A DNA stretch of 64,000 nucleotides from Chloropicon primus (Eukaryota), in NCBI GenBank assembly GCA_023205875.1, contig CP060755.1, positions 186,001-250,000 on the forward strand, read 5' to 3'. Shown piece by piece: positions 2,966-38,509 of the stretch; the first letter of the stretch is position 1; every line of letters starts with the position of its first letter. The position numbers were made by a program, and so were the translations under genes. Below the pieces are notes generated by a model. That model was not told where the DNA came from. It searched no databases and worked only from the letters and a program-made list of their open reading frames with translations.

Positions 2966-5545
2966 ATGACTGGAGGGGACAGCGACAAGGGCGATCATCC
3001 CGCCGGGGTGGAACAGTTTCGAAACCTGCCCGTGAGCCGATTGAACTCCAAGTACTTGTATTCGAATCAAACGTCTCACGCTTGGGTCTTCGGCGCTATC
3101 GCGGAGCTTCTTGACAACGCCATGGATCCGGATTGCTTGGCGAGCCAGGTTATGATCCAGCTGACGGAAGTCCAGGAGAAGGCCGTGCTGGTCATCATGG
3201 ACAACGGGAATGGCATGACGCCCGAAGCCCTCTACAAGGTGAGTGTTCCTTTTCAACTTTGCCTCGCTACTCTGGCGCGGGAGCTTACGCGAACCCTCTG
3301 TGTCTTTTGATCCTTTCAGATGCTTTCCTTCGGCTACAGTGAAAAGACGCAGGAAGTGATCCAGGGAAGGAGGTCGATCGGTCACTACGGTAACGGTTTC
3401 AAGTCAGGGAGCATGAGAATAGGGAAGGATGCGCTCGTGCTCACAAAGTGCGGGGACACGCAGTCCGTGGGGCTGCTGTCACGCACGTTTTTGGAAACGA
3501 TCGAGGCGGAGGAGGTGTATCTCCCATTGCTCACGTGGGATCACGAAGGAAAACTGCAAAACGAGGACGATAAGACGGTGAGAGAGGGGCTTGAGGCGAT
3601 CAGCAAGTACTCTATCTTCGACTCGGAGGAGGATCTCTTGTCCGAGTTCGAAGCCATCAAGGAGACCGGAACGATGATCATCATCTCGAACCTGAAGAAG
3701 CTTGGGGACGAGAACGACGCTGACAGTCCCTTGGAGCTTTGCGTGGACCCCGAGGAGGCAGACATCAAGATCAGTAGCTACTCTCCGGACGGAAAGTCGA
3801 AGTTCCAGCAGCTCAGGGTTGGCCAGGGAAGCAATGTGGACATTCCTCTGGACTATTCACTGAGAGCTTACGTCTCGGTCCTGTACAAGGTCCCGCGCAT
3901 GCAAATTTTTCTTATGGGAAAGAAAGTGAAGTGCAAGCGCGCGAGTCAGCAACTTTCGGAGAGAATGCACGACACCTACAAGCCCTATTCCGCAGGTGGC
4001 CAGCCAGCCGACATACTGATCGGGTTCTCAGAGCCAGAGGACTTGTACGGCATGATGATGTACCACAATAACAGACTCATCAAGCCCTATGTCAGGGTAG
4101 GATGCCAGATGGAAGCGAACGCAAAAGGCGTGGGGGTTCTCGGCATCATAGACGCCAACTTTCTGACTCCAATGCACAACAAGCAGGATTTTGCTGACAC
4201 GAAGGAGTACAGGGGGCTCATCAACAAGCTGTCTCAGAATCTGAACATGTTCTGGTGGGCTAAGGTTGAGAAACCGGCTGCAGAAGAGAAGGACAGGGAA
4301 GAGCAACAGAAGAAGAAAAGGAGGAGGAAACAACCAGACGTTAACTGGGTCCAATGTGGGTATCCTCCTTGCGCAAAATGGCGTATCTTGCCCAAAGGAA
4401 CAGATATGACGCCATTCAACGACGAGAACTTTCACTGGGTTTGCTCCATGCACCCCAATCCAAAGATTGCTGATTCGAACCACGAATACCCTGAGGACAC
4501 TTGGGACATTGATGTGGTCCAGGGAGAAGAGGCAGCGGCAAAGAGAAGGGAATGGCAGGCTGAAAAGAGGCAGAAGAAGGCGGAGGAGGTCGCAAAGAAG
4601 GACGCACAAGTTCTGCAGCTTGCTCAGGAAGGACTGCTGCAGCACATACAGTTCGAAGGAGTAAACCAGCCAGTAAATGCTGGCCCAGAACCCCCCAGAG
4701 AGGTGCAAGTGCAGCAGCCAAGCCAGCCACCGACTTCTGGGGCTCCAGAACCCCCCAGAGAGGTGCAAGTGCAGCAGCCAAGCCAGCCACCGACTCCTGG
4801 GGCTCCAGAACCCCCCAGAGAGGTGCAAGTGCAGCAGCCACTGGCTTCTCCAGATGCTCTAGAATGCAAGAACGATTCTGATTCTGATACAATATCTGAG
4901 GATCACGCTGCAGAAATCCGACAGCCACCTGTCACACAGAAAGAGGGAACAGCGGTACGGAGCTCAATGCAAGTCAGCACCCAAGCTACTGCTCCTTCGA
5001 AGGGAGATCGTGCGAGAAGTGATACCCAGGCGGGTGTTGGTGCAAGTGGGACCCGGCAGGTAGACATAGAAAGTTTGGGAATAGGCATCATAGAAGACAA
5101 TTTGGTGAGAACCCGGGTGAGGCGAGAGGATGCTGACAATAATGCAGGTGGCGCTGAAAGGGGGTCCCCCCAGCCCGGACCACAACGCCAAATCTTGTCC
5201 GCACTACCATGCCAAGTCTCGCCCGCACTACCAGCAGGCGCCCCCTTGCCGAATCTCTTTGAGGAGGTACTCCAAATTGGAGTTCACCATGGCAGGCCTG
5301 TTCACCAACCTTGGGACCAACTGACCCAAGATCATCGTCTTGCTTTGTGCCAAACAAAATTGAGACAGTGCTTGCAACTCATCTACCTCACTGCGCAGAG
5401 GGGAGGGAGGCTTGCTCACATGCCAACGCTTAACCTTGTATCAAATTCAAGGGATGACGAGTTGGCCAGGATAAACATGCGGGTGTACTTCAGAGCGATT
5501 GGTTTGGAAGACTTGTATAACCAGATGTTTGCCCATCATACATGA
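2966..5545 (+). CDS. MORC: MORC-family GHKL ATPase with CW-type zinc finger; intron 3239-3319
   Basis: FGAIAELLDNAMD, DNGNGM, IGHYGNGFKSGSMRIG, S5-domain GMMMYHNNRLI...PMHNKQDF, and CW motif NWVQCGYPPCAKWRILP...WVCSMHP. GT..AG intron joins the two ORFs. Confidence 0.93.
4685..4840 (+). repeat. In-frame 60-bp tandem repeat (~2.6 copies; PEPPREVQVQQPSQPPTxGA) inside MORC
   Basis: Successive 60-nt lines are nearly identical. Confidence 0.95.
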
Positions 5546-32755: not shown

Positions 32756-33649
32756 TTAGACCCTGTGCATGTCGACCCTGATGTGCAAATAGAGAGGCTT
32801 CACGCTGAGCAAGTTGAAGGTCTTCCTCATGAAGTCCGTGGGCTTCTTGTAGATCTCCAGGCAGATCTCCTTGCCGCTCTCGCCGTTGATCTCGTCCAGC
32901 TCCAGGAAGCACCACGCCTTGGTGCTCACCTTGTTCTTCTTCGCCTTGTAGTGCTTGAACTCGAAGAAGAAGCCAAAGTCGTTCTCGATCAGGCGCATCG
33001 GGGTGTTGAAGTGGACCTCCTGGTTGAAGATGACGTGGAAGGGCTTGGATATCTCCGTCGCCTTGATCTCCTCCAGCTGCTCGATGATCACGCCGTTGCT
33101 GTCCACGATGGAGAGGGTCAGCGTGGGGTCCTTGAAGATGGAGACGTCCTTGAAGCCCATCTTCGCGACGTGGAGGGTCAGCACGATGTCTCCCTGCTTC
33201 GCCAAGCTCTTGTTTTTCATGTTCGCCATGTCGTAAGAGTTCTGCCGCGAGAAGCGCTCCTTGATGTTGTTGATCTCCGAGGTGCTCATCAGGTCCCTCG
33301 AGATGGACGCCATGTCTATCGGGAACGGGCGCGTGTCGACCAGGAGGGTGTTCACGTAAGGCTCGAGGCCCTGGATGCCCGAGAAACCTATCCCGTGGTT
33401 CCTGTCATTCTTGATCTCCAAGATCCTGACTTTGAGGCACGACACGAGGTCCTTGAGGGAGTCGACCTCCTCGGCCCTCACGTCAAGCTTCTTCTCGTCC
33501 TGTATGTTCAAAATCTTCCCGCAAAGCTCCTTGTAAGCCTTGTGAGCCTCTTCAATCTGACCCCAGCTATCCCACTCCACGGCCGTCCTGTACTCCTTCC
33601 GGAGCATCTGGCTGGCCTCCTTCCTCGCGAAGGAGTCTCGTCGCGCCAT
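32756..33649 (-). CDS. AIDA: AIDA (Axin-interactor) C2-domain protein
   Basis: WDSWGQIEEA..AY, FFEFKHYKAKKNKVSTKAWCFLE.DEI, LEIYKKPTDF...L.LLS.KPLYLH. Confidence 0.85.
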   Translation of the reverse strand: MARRDSFARKEASQMLRKEYRTAVEWDSWGQIEEAHKAYKELCGKILNIQDEKKLDVRAEEVDSLKDLVSCLKVRILEIKNDRNHGIGFSGIQGLEPYVNTLLVDTRPFPIDMASISRDLMSTSEINNIKERFSRQNSYDMANMKNKSLAKQGDIVLTLHVAKMGFKDVSIFKDPTLTLSIVDSNGVIIEQLEEIKATEISKPFHVIFNQEVHFNTPMRLIENDFGFFFEFKHYKAKKNKVSTKAWCFLELDEINGESGKEICLEIYKKPTDFMRKTFNLLSVKPLYLHIRVDMHRV

Positions 33650-33849
33650 CCCTTCCTCCGCGCAACGCTCCCGCCCTGACTCCGACTAAGTTACTCTCTC
33701 TCTTGTCTTGTCCCTTCCTCCCTGCCCCCCCACCAACCCCACATCCGTGATGAGGTTTCCTTCTCCCTCCGAGGAGGCTCACCTCGTTCCTCCCACCCAA
33801 CCCACCCAATGACAGAGGGAAATGACCGACCTTGCTCCCTTCCTCGTCC

Positions 33850-33874
33850 TCCACCTGTCCTTCGAGATTTTGAA
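33850..33874. repeat. Left copy of 25-bp direct repeat (putative target-site duplication) TCCACCTGTCCTTCGAGATTTTGAA
   Basis: Identical to 38812-38836. Confidence 0.92.
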
Positions 33875-33995
33875 CACAGATAAGTCACGAAAGGACGGTA
33901 AGAAAATCACAGTCAATACTGGAAGCACAAAGGCAAGTTCTCCTTTCCACTGAAAGAGAGAAACACGGAGAGAACGGAGACCGGCCACAACTTAC

Positions 33996-34148
33996 CTGTT
34001 AGTTTTCTGCAAAGGTCGTTTCACCGAGTTTGTAAGTTTCTCGGCAGGGTAATTCAGCCCTACCACGACCATTCCACCGTACATGAACGAATACTTCCGC
34101 CCACGCACGGCAGCCCGTACTAACAAACGTATGTGCAACCCTGAGGAG
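33996..34148 (-). ncRNA. Candidate Fanzor omegaRNA scaffold (boundaries approximate; may overlap the ORF 3' end)
   Basis: Directly downstream of the stop codon. Nested stems on the minus strand: TGTTAGT/ACTAACA, GGTCGT/ACGACC, GGTAGGG/CCCTGCC, CCGAG/CTCGG. Confidence 0.6.
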
Positions 34149-36317
34149 TTACACACTTTTTGGTTGACGCAAGTGCTTCAGGAGGACGTTGCGTGCCCCG
34201 TTCACATCCCGACCGCACTTGAAGCCACACTTCTGGCACTTGTACACCTCTGCTCCACCCAGGTTGTCCTTGATGTGTCCGCACCTGCCACAGGTCTTGG
34301 AGGTGTACTCCTCCGTCACGATCGCCAGCTCACTGCCGTGCAAGAGCACCTTGGAAGCCAAGAACGTTCTGAACGCATAGTGCCTCAACGTCAAGAGCGT
34401 GCGAGCCGTCTTCTTCCTGATCACTCGGCGTCTCCCGTTGTTGTTCTTCTTCACCATGTCTTGGGACTTGAACTCCGGGAGGAGGATTGTGTCGAACCTC
34501 CTGCATAGATCGTTGGCTACCTTTTTGTGAAGCTCGTTCGTCAGACCTCGAATTTTCTCCATGCAGGCGTATTGCTGTCTCTTCAAGTCGCGGCGGTCGA
34601 GGTAAGGGAGCTTCACCTTTGGGTCTTTGCGCTCGGAAATGATCTCATCAATCCTCCAGCAGAGGTTGAACAGCCTCGCGAAGCCTCGCTCGCCCTTGGC
34701 ATACTCCCCGACGCCTTCTTGCGGCGAGTACGACGTCTGAAAGGTCCTGACTCCCGGATCCAGGGCGACAACCTTCCGCTTGTTCTCAGGCTTCAGGGGT
34801 GGCAGGCGATCCCATGGCGTCGCGATGGGAATGTGCATGTGGAACTGCCCAAGGCGATTTCTTGTGATCTTCACGGCACCCTCGATCTTGCCCCCGGGGA
34901 TCTCCTCCGTCAAGTACAGGGGCCCGCCGGCCATCTTCTTCTTGAACACCTCCAGCTTGGTCCACTTGCGTCGTTTCTTGTGCTTCGTATCATCCTTGTG
35001 CCTCGTGTTTGGCCTTTCGATCGTCTCCACGTTCTTTAACTCTCTTGCATCAATTTCAATAGTCCAAGAGCTCGGTTGCTGACGTTGACGATACTTGAGA
35101 ACGAAGCGGTGCCCCTTCTCCTCGCCGCGCTCCTTCATCGCTTCCTGCTTCGCGGTGTTCGAATCCCATGCCTTGATGAGACTTCGCACGGCAGCTTGTC
35201 TGATGGCACAGGGGGTTTCCTTCAGCCAAGGATGCTTCTGATTCACAAAGGCCCCGCTAACGTAGTCCCGGTCCTTGCCCACTTGGATGCGAAAAGCTCT
35301 GCCTCCAATTTGGCTCTCGAGTCTCTTCTCTCTGGCCGCGAAAAGCTCTGCCTCCTGTTTTGTCCATGGCCGTGGAGAGCATTGGATTTCTTTCAGCTCT
35401 TTCTCCAGGCCCTCAAAGACCTCAGGGCGTCGCGGTTTGGCCGTCACAAATCTGTCCAGCAGGACGGTCCAAACCAGCGGAAAACCCTCCTTCTTGACCG
35501 CCTCCAAACACTTGTTGTATGTGAAACGCGCAGCTCCCATCCAGTTGCAAAGTGTTCTCGCCTGCTCAGGGTTCAAGCGCATCCTAAGCTTCCTCGTCCG
35601 CATCACCGTTCGCTCCGACAATAGCTTGGAGGTCTTCAGTTTCTGCTCCCTCTTCCTTTTGGCGGGCGACTGCAATGTCTCGACGGATACCACAGAATCT
35701 TCTGGAAGGTTCAAGCACGACCTCCATCCCGTCTTCGGACACTTTACCTCTACAAGTTCTCTCTTGATCGATGAGAACCAGGTCTTCTTCACGCTGTCGT
35801 CCGCCAAGCCACCCGGCTGCTTCCCTGCTTTCTTCCCCCTCTTGTTCTTCTTCTTCTTACCCTTCTTCTTGTTCTTCTTCTTGCCCTTCTTGCGAGGCTT
35901 CTTGCGAGGCTTGCCTGACGAGCTCGAACTCTCACCCGCAGAGGCGTCCGCCTCCGGCGGACGCCCCTTCCGCTTCCCCCCCCGCTTCTTGCGAGGCGTG
36001 CTCGAACCCTCCTCGAAAGCAGAGGCGGGGTCGTCCAGCGGCTTCCCCTTCCGCTTCCCCCCCCGCTTCTTGCGAGGCGTGCTCGAACCCTCACCCGCAG
36101 AGGCGGGGTCGTCCGCGATAGGAAGCAGGCACAACGCGTAGAGCCAGGCTAAACCCTGATTCCAGAACCGACGTAACGGCTCCGTCGTCGGAGACTCCTG
36201 CCCCGACTTCGAAGCGCCCTGAGCATGACTCTCGCCAGAGTGCGACCTCCTTGTGGAACTCGTCGAGCCACTCCCCTGCTTCTCCTTTTTCTTACGGCGC
36301 TTCCCTGATCGCGCCAT
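34149..36317 (-). CDS. Fanzor2 / IS607-type TnpB-like RNA-guided endonuclease, 722 aa
   Basis: OrfB HTH RTRKLRMRLNPEQARTLCNWMGAARFTYNKCL; RuvC-I VALDPGVRTF; ILLPEF (Pro at the canonical Glu position) with alternative Glu in VTEEYTSKTC; zinc ribbon CGRC..CQKC; RuvC-III RDVNGARN. Confidence 0.93.
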   Translation of the reverse strand: MARSGKRRKKKEKQGSGSTSSTRRSHSGESHAQGASKSGQESPTTEPLRRFWNQGLAWLYALCLLPIADDPASAGEGSSTPRKKRGGKRKGKPLDDPASAFEEGSSTPRKKRGGKRKGRPPEADASAGESSSSSGKPRKKPRKKGKKKNKKKGKKKKNKRGKKAGKQPGGLADDSVKKTWFSSIKRELVEVKCPKTGWRSCLNLPEDSVVSVETLQSPAKRKREQKLKTSKLLSERTVMRTRKLRMRLNPEQARTLCNWMGAARFTYNKCLEAVKKEGFPLVWTVLLDRFVTAKPRRPEVFEGLEKELKEIQCSPRPWTKQEAELFAAREKRLESQIGGRAFRIQVGKDRDYVSGAFVNQKHPWLKETPCAIRQAAVRSLIKAWDSNTAKQEAMKERGEEKGHRFVLKYRQRQQPSSWTIEIDARELKNVETIERPNTRHKDDTKHKKRRKWTKLEVFKKKMAGGPLYLTEEIPGGKIEGAVKITRNRLGQFHMHIPIATPWDRLPPLKPENKRKVVALDPGVRTFQTSYSPQEGVGEYAKGERGFARLFNLCWRIDEIISERKDPKVKLPYLDRRDLKRQQYACMEKIRGLTNELHKKVANDLCRRFDTILLPEFKSQDMVKKNNNGRRRVIRKKTARTLLTLRHYAFRTFLASKVLLHGSELAIVTEEYTSKTCGRCGHIKDNLGGAEVYKCQKCGFKCGRDVNGARNVLLKHLRQPKSV
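35888..36116 (-). repeat. 81-bp in-frame tandem repeat (~2.5 copies) encoding basic NLS-like DDPASA.E.SSTPRKKRGGKRKG
   Basis: 35964-36036 is nearly identical to 36045-36116, with a third degenerate copy. Confidence 0.9.
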
Positions 36318-36492
36318 GACTGTTAGCTGCTACTGCAAGGGTTTCACTCGCTGCCCTCCTCGTAACTCCTCGTAACTATAGATTTGCCTTGTCCAGCAAG
36401 TGAGAACACGAAAAAACGCTTAGTGGGTTGTCCTTTGGGTGTGACCAAACTGGTATACACTGGAATCCCACCAACAGGGGAAAACCTCCAAC

Positions 36493-38509
36493 ATGGGGAG
36501 CGCGGGAGGAGAGACAGAGACTTGTGATGATGACGAAGGTGATGGCGAGAGGCTCGGGGCGGAGGAGGGGTGTGGAGTCTTCCTTGGGGTCGGCAGCCTC
36601 CACGGCGACCTCGACTTCCTCAGGATGGACCTCGAGGATCGCTCGAAGCAGACTCTGGAAGCCCTCAACAAGCTCGAGGAAGCCCACCAGAGGACCGAGG
36701 CGGAGAAGGGGGAGATCACGGACAGGTACAACAAGCTGGTGGAGACCGAGCGTAAGCTTCACCTCCCAGACCTTAGGAACGCGCTCTCGTCCGCCACGGC
36801 GAAGGTGGCCAAGTACGAGAAGTCGCTCGAGCAGAGCCAGAAGATCATCGCCCAAGTCACCGCGGACAACCTCGTCTTCCTGACCAAGTTCAAAGACGCG
36901 GAGGAGAAGTTTAGGGAAAGCGAGATGAGAAGGGAGGAGCTCCAGGTCATGGTCGACGAGCAGAAGGGCCCTTGGTTCGACAAGGTGAGGGGGGATATTC
37001 AACAGCAGGTTGAGAGCGACTGGCAAAAGATCCACAACCTTGAGAACGAGCTCTCCGCAGCAGAGCTCGAGTCGAAGAAAGAGATCAATCGACTGCAAGA
37101 GAAAGTGGAGGGCCTGAGCTCCGAGAACGAGGAGTTGCAAAAGGTCAAGGGCAGCATGGAGGAGAGGATCAAAAGCTTGAAGGAAAAGCTGAGGCAAAGG
37201 GAGGAGAAGGACATCAAGGCTGCTACAGACTTTGAATCACTGAACCAGCTGCTCAAGGACAACTTGGCGGAGAACAAGGTATTGAGGGAGACGATTAACG
37301 ACGAGCGGCACACGATCGCAGATCTGACGCTCGAGTCCCAGGACCAGAAGCACGTGATCGAGCAGCTGAAGAGCGACCTGAAGTTCGACAGGGTCACCTT
37401 GCAGGAACTCAGGGTGAACTTGCAGAAAGAGAAGTGGGCCCTCGAGACTCAGAGGCGCATCAACAAGGAACTGATGAGCAGGAAGGAGGAGATGGAATGG
37501 AGGCTCATGGAGTTCCAAGTTGGGGGAGGGGAAGGGAAGAGTGCCGAGGACTCGAACGCTGACCTGGCTGCAATGAGGGAGGAGGCTGGGACAGGAGGCC
37601 GGCAGGAGAGTCATTCCAGACCTTCTGCGAACTCTGCCGAGAAGCAGCCGGAGGCAGTGGCCCTCGGAAAGACGACGCGGTCAAAAGCGACTTCTCGTAC
37701 AAGGTTGTAGAGAAGGAAAAGAAGGTGGAGGAACAAGTCGTGGAGAGGAAATCCCCGGTTTCCGCGAGGAGGTTTGCGAGCCCTCCGGGAAAGATGATAC
37801 GCAGGAAGGCTCGGTACCTGCTGGCCTGACGGAATCCAACTTGAAACGCCACATACAGGGAGAGAAAGCCTCGAAAGCTTCGAAAGCTTCAAGTGAAGCG
37901 AGTGGCAAAGCCGCGAAGGGGGAAAGATTGACTATTGAGGAGCTCGAGGACAACATAGCAACCTCGAAAGACAAGCACGCAGAGCTGCTACAAGCATTCT
38001 TTCCTGCACAAAGTGAGAAGAGGATCGAAGAGAACCCTCTGCAAGTCCACCAGAGACTGGTCCAAAAGATAATTGGCGACGATACTTACGTCCCTGTGAG
38101 TCACAGCGTTCCTTCGGGCGAGATTTCTTCCGCGGATGCCACGATAGCGAGCATGCTCCGAGAGAGCATAACGGAAAACTCGAGCATAGGGGAACTTGAG
38201 GCCTCCATCGCGTTGGCCAAGAGCGAGTACAGCAAGATGATGGATAACTTCTCTAACCTCGTGGACAACTTGAAGAATGAGTCGGCCAGCCCTGGGCTGG
38301 AAACGATGCCCGTCCTGCCGGAAAGCATACAGAAAATGGCCGAGGAACAATTTGTGGAGCACTGGCAGATTGCGGACGGCAACCACTCCGAAACAAAGGA
38401 GTCGATCCAAGCCAGCGAGATCAAAGTCAGCGAGTGGCTGGACAATAAGATAAGCGAAGAGTGGAACAAGCAGTTCATGCCTGGATACCAGGAAGGGGAC
38501 GAAAGTTAG
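36493..38509 (+). pseudogene. Chimeric coiled-coil ORF, frameshifted in this assembly
   Basis: ATG is formed at the element/copy junction. The frame stays open through the fusion into the coiled-coil frame and is broken only by two homopolymer deletions. Confidence 0.6.
36494..36638 (+). repeat. Exact copy of 13262-13406 (5' end of the Dabb-like gene)
   Basis: Base-for-base match at constant offset 23232. Confidence 0.95.

Follow-up and report, generated by a model that had tools for sequence, protein, structure and literature searches.

A used splice donor at the predicted omegaRNA scaffold end of a known Fanzor2 family in the green alga Chloropicon primus

In Chloropicon primus, a tiny marine green alga, the predicted omegaRNA scaffold of a Fanzor2-type protein ends at a perfect splice donor, and the use of the splice at this scaffold end is seen in RNA-like contigs. 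The protein, found in the window (the whole stretch of 64,000 nucleotides of contig CP060755.1 that was analysed), and its family are known; the new part is the used splice site at the predicted scaffold end, which may choose the target. The reading that is tentatively favoured here is that the predicted scaffold ends at the used donor and that the joined host exon likely supplies the guide of a likely RNA-guided nuclease, i.e. a known protein family with possibly a new way of setting the guide.

The open reading frame is stop-free throughout its 722 codons on the reverse strand, and each motif of the intact, intronless frame described in the initial annotation was recovered (Table 1). The OrfB-type helix-turn-helix and the zinc ribbon proposed there correspond to the Pfam matches HTH_OrfB_IS605 at residues 240-275 (E 4e-7) and Cas12f1-like_TNB, the TNB zinc ribbon, at residues 646-711 (E 4e-18), and the guided_TnpB model of NCBIfam scores 91.9 bits, below its cut-off of 100. 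The mimivirus Fanzor2 ApmFz2 (9b0l) is the best solved relative by sequence (E 9e-20). It is also the best fold match of the predicted model (E 1.9e-14, TM 0.62 by target), with Fanzor2 ranked 1st and SpuFz1 32nd; the mean pLDDT of the model is 66, with residues 64-233 below 50 and predicted to be disordered. The attribution of the initial annotation to a Fanzor2 type with a rearranged RuvC site is upheld by this closeness and by the triad lying on the ApmFz2 residues. The definition of both Fanzor types, as worded in the available text of PMC10711439, includes the RuvC-I DPG motif, present here as D520-P-G. The RuvC-II glutamate is shifted to just before the zinc finger, with P614 at the canonical glutamate place, and the encoding is eukaryotic, as indicated by paralogs on C. 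primus chromosomes, eukaryotic neighbours and heterozygous insertions. E669 is present in all 23 rows of alignment A1, residue 670 being variable; since D520, E669 and D704 align with D324, E467 and D501, given as the catalytic triad of ApmFz2 in the available part of PMC11832414, E669 and not E670 is likely the catalytic glutamate. Judged from its sequence, the protein is likely an RNA-guided nuclease, and its residues point to catalytic competence. Of the 22 C. primus paralog proteins listed, themselves only a part of their clusters, 20 retain the DPG and TEEY motifs as well as the zinc finger and its Asp.

Table 1. Coordinates of the observed and predicted features in the window
Feature	Position	Strand	Basis or remark
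Host AIDA (C2-domain) gene, downstream	32756..33649	-	Pfam; spliced to scaffold in X5
Would-be guide, spliced RNA	33835..33854	-	AIDA 5' region; putative
141-nt GT-AG intron	33855..33995	-	acceptor CAG, 19 nt into host flank; joint in X5 contig
Multi-copy non-autonomous DNA element, this copy, 2620 bp	33874..36493	-	DNA contig depth, loose ends
Would-be guide, unspliced RNA	33976..33995	-	inside element; nearly the same in all copies; putative
Predicted omegaRNA scaffold, 3' part	33996..34170	-	fold z-score, covarying helix
Closing helix, 6 bp	34119-34124 with 33998-34003	-	covariation; long inner hairpins between
Hairpin over stop codon	34131-34156	-	predicted fold
Fanzor2 ORF, 722 aa	34149..36317	-	translation, Pfam, alignment, fold match
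RuvC-III Asp704	34206..34208	-	aligned to ApmFz2 D501
CxxC motifs	residues 676 and 694	-	sequence
Glu670	34308-34310	-	sequence
Shifted RuvC-II Glu669	34311..34313	-	aligned to ApmFz2 E467
ILLPEF Pro614	34476-34478	-	sequence; aligned to canonical Glu of Cas12m
RuvC-I Asp520 (DPG)	34758..34760	-	aligned to ApmFz2 D324
Dead IS607 TnpA relic, other frame, with stops	35593..36261 (36082-36261 + 35593-35814)	-	profile match
81-nt tandem repeats, basic, NLS-like	35910..36105	-	sequence; NLS function putative
Left end, TGTTG start	36318..36493	-	same start in a published insertion; likely own promoter

The protein is one intact copy of the already published C. primus Fanzor2* family and is not new. 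Among 907 matches, the best four bear the name 'putative IS605 transposase [Chloropicon primus]' and are 90-100% identical, and the protein itself is present in the searched collection within a cluster of 46. UPR03652.1, from the table of Yoon et al. 2023, is 98% identical over 86% of residues 170-722; QDZ22394.1, classed as FZ2 in the available part of Saito et al. 2023 (PMC10432273), falls into one cluster with P0004, itself 100% identical over 68%. The available portions of the published reports describe the family as 25 loci with an RNA-seq depth of 0.7-88 (Lemieux et al. 2019, PMC6731263) and assign it to Fanzor2* (Yoon et al. 2023, PMC10711439, also as a preprint). The latter describe a Fanzor2 carried by a non-autonomous element that has degenerate TIRs and a variable 5-nt TSD, and in that same portion they found no autonomous partner for it. 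The available text and tables of PMC10711439, PMC10432273 and PMC6731263 mention neither the splice donor, nor the TnpA relic, nor an assay. A literature search mostly at the level of titles, covering few subscription papers, found no activity test of the C. primus family and no Fanzor whose omegaRNA is described as ending at a spliceosomal donor. Thus, the wording 'possibly uncharacterised' of the initial annotation stands for the biochemistry but not for the family, which is annotated and, in the parts available of two 2023 papers, named Fanzor2 or Fanzor2*. The multi-copy element, the omegaRNA-like structure and the donor at its end come in addition to what that annotation described. Another C. 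primus protein, QDZ21418.1, is classed as Fanzor1 (PMC10432273, supplement 3, row 1450), and both types may coexist in the genome. Linked amino-acid blocks of the predicted REC region, at window positions 35278-35297 and 35553-35557, are mixed among the paralogs, suggesting conversion between copies. In two metagenome proteins, P0028 and P0089, an XPG/EXO1-type nuclease is predicted to be fused to a C-terminal portion resembling Fanzor; these could be genuine fusions or result from read-through in gene calling.

In a quick tree of 75 rows, drawn without Fanzor1 rows, 72 metagenome loci and near-duplicates and with an unresolved deep order, the window protein belongs to a 99%-supported clade of 12 rows, none of them prokaryote-labelled. 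This clade is nested in a 95% group with IS607 pro-Fanzors and viral rows. Of the 17 prokaryote rows, 16 fall into a 97% clade that does not include the window protein; 8 canonical TnpBs are far off, separated at 100%. The phylogeny called for in the initial annotation has placed the protein outside the prokaryote clade, and the grouping with IS607 pro-Fanzors and viral Fanzor2, apart from canonical TnpB, is that of a Fanzor2. The neighbouring genes are eukaryotic as well (AIDA, Rubisco-LSMT, EF1-beta, SpoU methylase), which together with the heterozygous insertions and the 99% clade agrees with the earlier view of a nuclear integration with contamination unlikely. The absence of a TSD at this copy and the differing flank depths (91 vs 222-308 in X1), by which the locus may be rearranged, would fit contamination by a bacterial TnpB or an error of assembly. 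Either is, however, very improbable in view of the 25 chromosomal loci and heterozygous long-read insertions in the available part of PMC6731263, the prokaryote-free clade and the spliced transcripts among the RNA-like contigs.

The limits of the element were drawn from the DNA runs X1 and X2, in which the contig depth is about 90-135 left of 33874, reaches thousands across the element and drops beyond 36493, with loose ends of contigs at both places. The majority of copies continue past 33874, the right end of this copy being about 38 nt short against full copies. In the published large-indel table, the part of PMC6731263 concerned here, three heterozygous insertions of 2664-2707 bp begin with the ends of this element, and one heterozygous insertion has the full right end with a TGTTG start as in the left end; the letters come from noisy long reads in cells of 400 letters at most, with one clean right end. 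At some loci, as the heterozygous insertions show, a filled allele stands beside an empty one. The flanks of this copy, TTTGA and TGGGG, form no 5-nt target-site duplication, and a scan of the copy found neither TIR nor TSD; full copies carry TGTTG at both ends, as judged by the one clean right end. The missing duplication lowers only the claim of a clean insertion, the copy being truncated. As in other Fanzor2* elements, there is no TnpA gene, only a stop-riddled relic in another frame, and the canonical IS607 traits are absent: there is no serine-recombinase TnpA, and the scaffold does not lie at the element end. No second copy was found within the 64-kb window. The TGT at 33856 was rejected as an element end, the shared sequence beginning at 33874; the 23-24 extra flank bases of two published insertions were also not retained as cleavage scars, one length fitting the element plus about 5 nt and the table cells being capped at 400 letters. 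The RNA-like cover is near zero beyond about 36373 (X4, X5), where the DNA cover is still high, a weak hint that a promoter likely lies inside the left end.

The ATG of a neighbouring coiled-coil ORF (36493-37710, forward strand) takes in the last base of the element. On the side of this ORF the DNA depth in X1 is 2.4-3.4 times that left of 33874, a hint that the flank is duplicated or the locus rearranged. In one X5 contig the 5' region of the Fanzor is continued, at window 36326-36348, by sequence without relation to it, possibly as an upstream exon joined into the element or as a truncated copy.

The N-terminal part of the frame overlies the TnpA relic, to which a profile from five close relatives matches with E 6e-7, the best of six frames; a broad 47-locus TnpA profile did not recover it. 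In these relatives, L001, L002, L004, L005 and L006 (40-56% identity), the Fanzor N-terminus is overlapped by a TnpA frame of IS607 type, and the TnpA of three of them, all three that were tested, gives Resolvase matches in Pfam. The similarity of the relic shows a probable descent from the IS607 overlap and may have been retained only through conservation of the Fanzor frame. The 81-nt repeats sit between the two pieces of the relic, and the copy number of their motif among paralogs is 0-3.

The 175 nt of the predicted scaffold fold with a z-score of -4.55, none of 200 shuffles being as stable; L001, L002 and L004 give z-scores from -2.9 to -4.4, and L005 and L003 are not well folded. Among 7 sequences, 39 of the 40 cells retain the closing helix, with a compensatory change in 5 of 6 pairs, the helix having been picked from those same 7 sequences and its own controls being favourable. 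The 3'-terminal pseudoknot-type pairing of Fanzor2 omegaRNAs is thereby found as a prediction, of nested or knotted topology, and Rfam yielded only sub-threshold matches in 33600-36600, none above the gathering score. The comparative analysis places the scaffold end at 33996, two bases past the helix, with an uncertainty of about 1 nt. In the ApmFz2 pseudoknot, according to the available part of PMC11832414, the paired C is third from the RNA end; in ISXfa1 the A-3 is paired and a fixed flank base is part of the scaffold; the 78-nt TIR of L003 ends 2 nt past the helix, and multi-copy prokaryote families end 2 nt past the homologous C, with helix and GG. A blind fixed-rule calibration of the helix-to-end offset gave 1 in four families and 2 in two families, with 3 of 9 unscored. 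The offset-1 case L158 ends in GTATC-TG against GTATC-GG elsewhere, so that the homologous end position is the same. The scaffold end, searched for as a pattern in metagenome contigs, was matched 0 times; MAFFT misaligned the untrimmed 3' regions, and L007 after trimming.

Position 33996 is followed by GTAAGT, i.e. a perfect donor AG/GTAAGT stands at the predicted scaffold end, and AGGTAAGT occurs once only in the window, both strands counted. The contigs of the RNA-like runs X4, X5, X6 and X7, from three studies, break or branch at 33995/33996, these runs being labelled RNA by guess and the data being contigs and not reads. In the DNA runs X1 and X2 neither a joint nor a loose end falls at the donor among all 10 loose-end rows. 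Four distinct long continuations past the donor were obtained (X5, X6, X7), of which only one is tied to genomic DNA, namely the X5 contig that joins the element to the 5' region of AIDA with 31 letters on its short side. The 21 letters between the joint sides in X5 equal a flank allele also present in X1 and X2. Of the 4 possible registers of the joint, only the one with the intron of Table 1 gives GT-AG, the length of 141 nt comparing with a genome mean intron of 152 bp. The contig depth before and after the donor, in rough terms, is about 1890 vs 105 in X5 and 1280 vs 170-180 in X7. The richest one-base branches in X5 have a depth of 700-1350, and poly(A) or ends of another kind may account for some of those past the donor. 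A 46-nt intron to an internal acceptor at 33950 was rejected, no such joint occurring in the RNA-like contigs, and the absent intron cover in X6 was given no weight as evidence. Since RNA-like contigs over 35278-35297 carry another subtype's letters, the RNA-like cover is not assignable to exactly this ORF copy. A short derivative was observed at window 35717 in X4 and X5, where the N-terminal part of the ORF leads straight into a motif that resembles the scaffold end and has GG ahead of the donor, and variants of this derivative dominate the RNA-like depth at 35752-35784. Between the window and X1/X2, the sole indel cluster in 1.2 kb lies at 33838-33841, 14-24 nt into the would-be spliced guide; as one case in non-coding DNA, this allele difference was set aside as evidence.

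The same observations may be read as mRNA handling only, the splice providing borrowed exons or poly(A), an alternative 5' exon or damping by nonsense-mediated decay, with the Fanzor being a passenger or working without homing. The X5 contig shows no branch from the scaffold onwards through AIDA, the intron lies about 155 nt past the stop codon, such a position being a nonsense-mediated decay signal, and intact ORFs in young copies need no selection. An algal Fanzor1 RNP, moreover, formed yet did not cut, as given in the available part of PMC10312701. This explanation, which is rather unlikely, leaves unaccounted for why the donor stands at the scaffold end and not elsewhere in the 120-160 nt right end, and why helix and triad are retained with the nearest relatives being about 55% identical in protein sequence.

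Alternatively, the unspliced nascent RNA with its fixed guide would target related sequences, such as the short deletion derivatives, and splicing would compete with it and tune it, as in IStrons, where splicing and guide RNA are mutually exclusive according to the available part of 10.1101/2023.11.20.567912. Unspliced contigs are indeed present in X4, X5 and X7, and the short derivative of X4 and X5 has GG followed by a near match to the fixed guide, with 11 of its first 12 bases agreeing. However, that derivative is known by only two loose ends, 23 and 36 letters long, the unspliced depth is about 1/20 to 1/7 of the spliced side, and the first 10 bases of the guide have no further match within the window, so that targeting by the fixed guide is judged quite unlikely.

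The favoured reading, in which the joined host exon sets the guide, may be extended by the doubtful proposal that the spliceosome writes the guide, the donor at the last base of the scaffold restoring flank-derived targeting after TIR capture, with a self-protection through AG. The ancestor would have been an IS607 element, its TnpA decaying later, and the capture by a TIR element would have put 120-160 fixed bases (122 nt here, about 160 nt in full copies) between scaffold and flank, which alone would leave every copy with the same useless guide. Splicing would remove these bases and bring flank sequence directly after the scaffold again, swapping the fixed 20-nt guide for host exon sequence. 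The Fanzor translated from the spliced mRNA would load the 3' part of that mRNA and cut the element-free allele beside a G-ending TAM, and repair templated by the filled allele would copy the element across. The available part of PMC13565253 gives an allele-copying homing as proposed for OMEGA systems, and Fanzor2 TAMs as 3 nt long and G-rich. With AG just 5' of each guide's own genomic copy, an AG-excluding TAM would protect the locus. Such homing would occur only where an acceptor forms at the junction, with the element ending in CA and the flank opening with G.

In one published insertion the right flank opens with G, and in a second it perhaps does so too (a noisy read), against which two left-end flanks have C, not G, at five bases out. 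The sole mapped acceptor lies 19 nt into the flank, off the junction, and thus gives no support for homing, against which the persistence of heterozygous sites also counts. The base after the end is T in 5 of 6 close relatives, with GT in four of these, a further point against the proposal, since a donor could thereby arise by chance. The truncated end and the acceptor 19 nt into the flank would make the guide of this copy blind to filled versus empty alleles, and its protein could still work in trans.

The available text of Yoon et al. (PMC10711439) raised the question of how Fanzor2 retains its flank-derived guide after capture by a eukaryotic transposon, and a used splice donor here marks the end of a predicted scaffold that 120-160 fixed bases separate from the flank. 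Should the spliced RNA serve as guide, it would be a nuclease programming possible only in eukaryotes; if it does not, the element still supplies host genes with a transposon-derived first exon. The protein alone is a further member of a listed family, at most a candidate editor. The alga is culturable and diploid, with filled and empty alleles, and is suited to testing.

With the C. primus Fanzor2* as set out in the available part of PMC10711439, this copy shares the family and the non-autonomous, TnpA-less element, from which it differs by a right end about 38 nt shorter and by the lack of the described 5-nt TSD. ApmFz2 and the algal protein have in common the triad and a basic N-terminal extension, whereas their identity is 18% and the algal one is 200 aa longer. 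In ApmFz2 the guide directly abuts the flank, with the TAM GGG (PMC11832414, available part), whereas fixed bases intervene in the alga. The IS607 pro-Fanzor TnpBs and IS607-type Fanzor2 relatives L001, L002 and L004-L006 likewise have DPG and the shifted Glu, the TnpA overlap of the N-terminus and the closing helix followed by 2 nt. However, they have a readable TnpA frame (full in L005 and L006), which is dead in the window, and their scaffold apparently ends at the element end, where 120-160 nt more follow in the window. L003 (51% identity), whose neighbours resemble giant-virus genes (poly(A) polymerase, WLM protease), has at 1335-1412 and 3316-3393 a near-perfect TIR of 78 nt in which the omegaRNA end recurs in inverted form, and is a further TIR-bounded Fanzor2 of another design. 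In L005, an ORF at 2442-2897 beside the complete IS607-Fanzor2 has a weak Herpes_ORF28 match (E 1e-4, below cut-off), suggesting a viral host. The nearest idea to a spliced guide boundary is that of the IStrons, which, in the available part of 10.1101/2023.11.20.567912, likewise have splicing and a guide RNA at the right end of the element. There, a group I intron excises the whole element, whereas in 33600-36600 no Rfam family scored above gathering, and the GT-AG intron described here spans the right end only.
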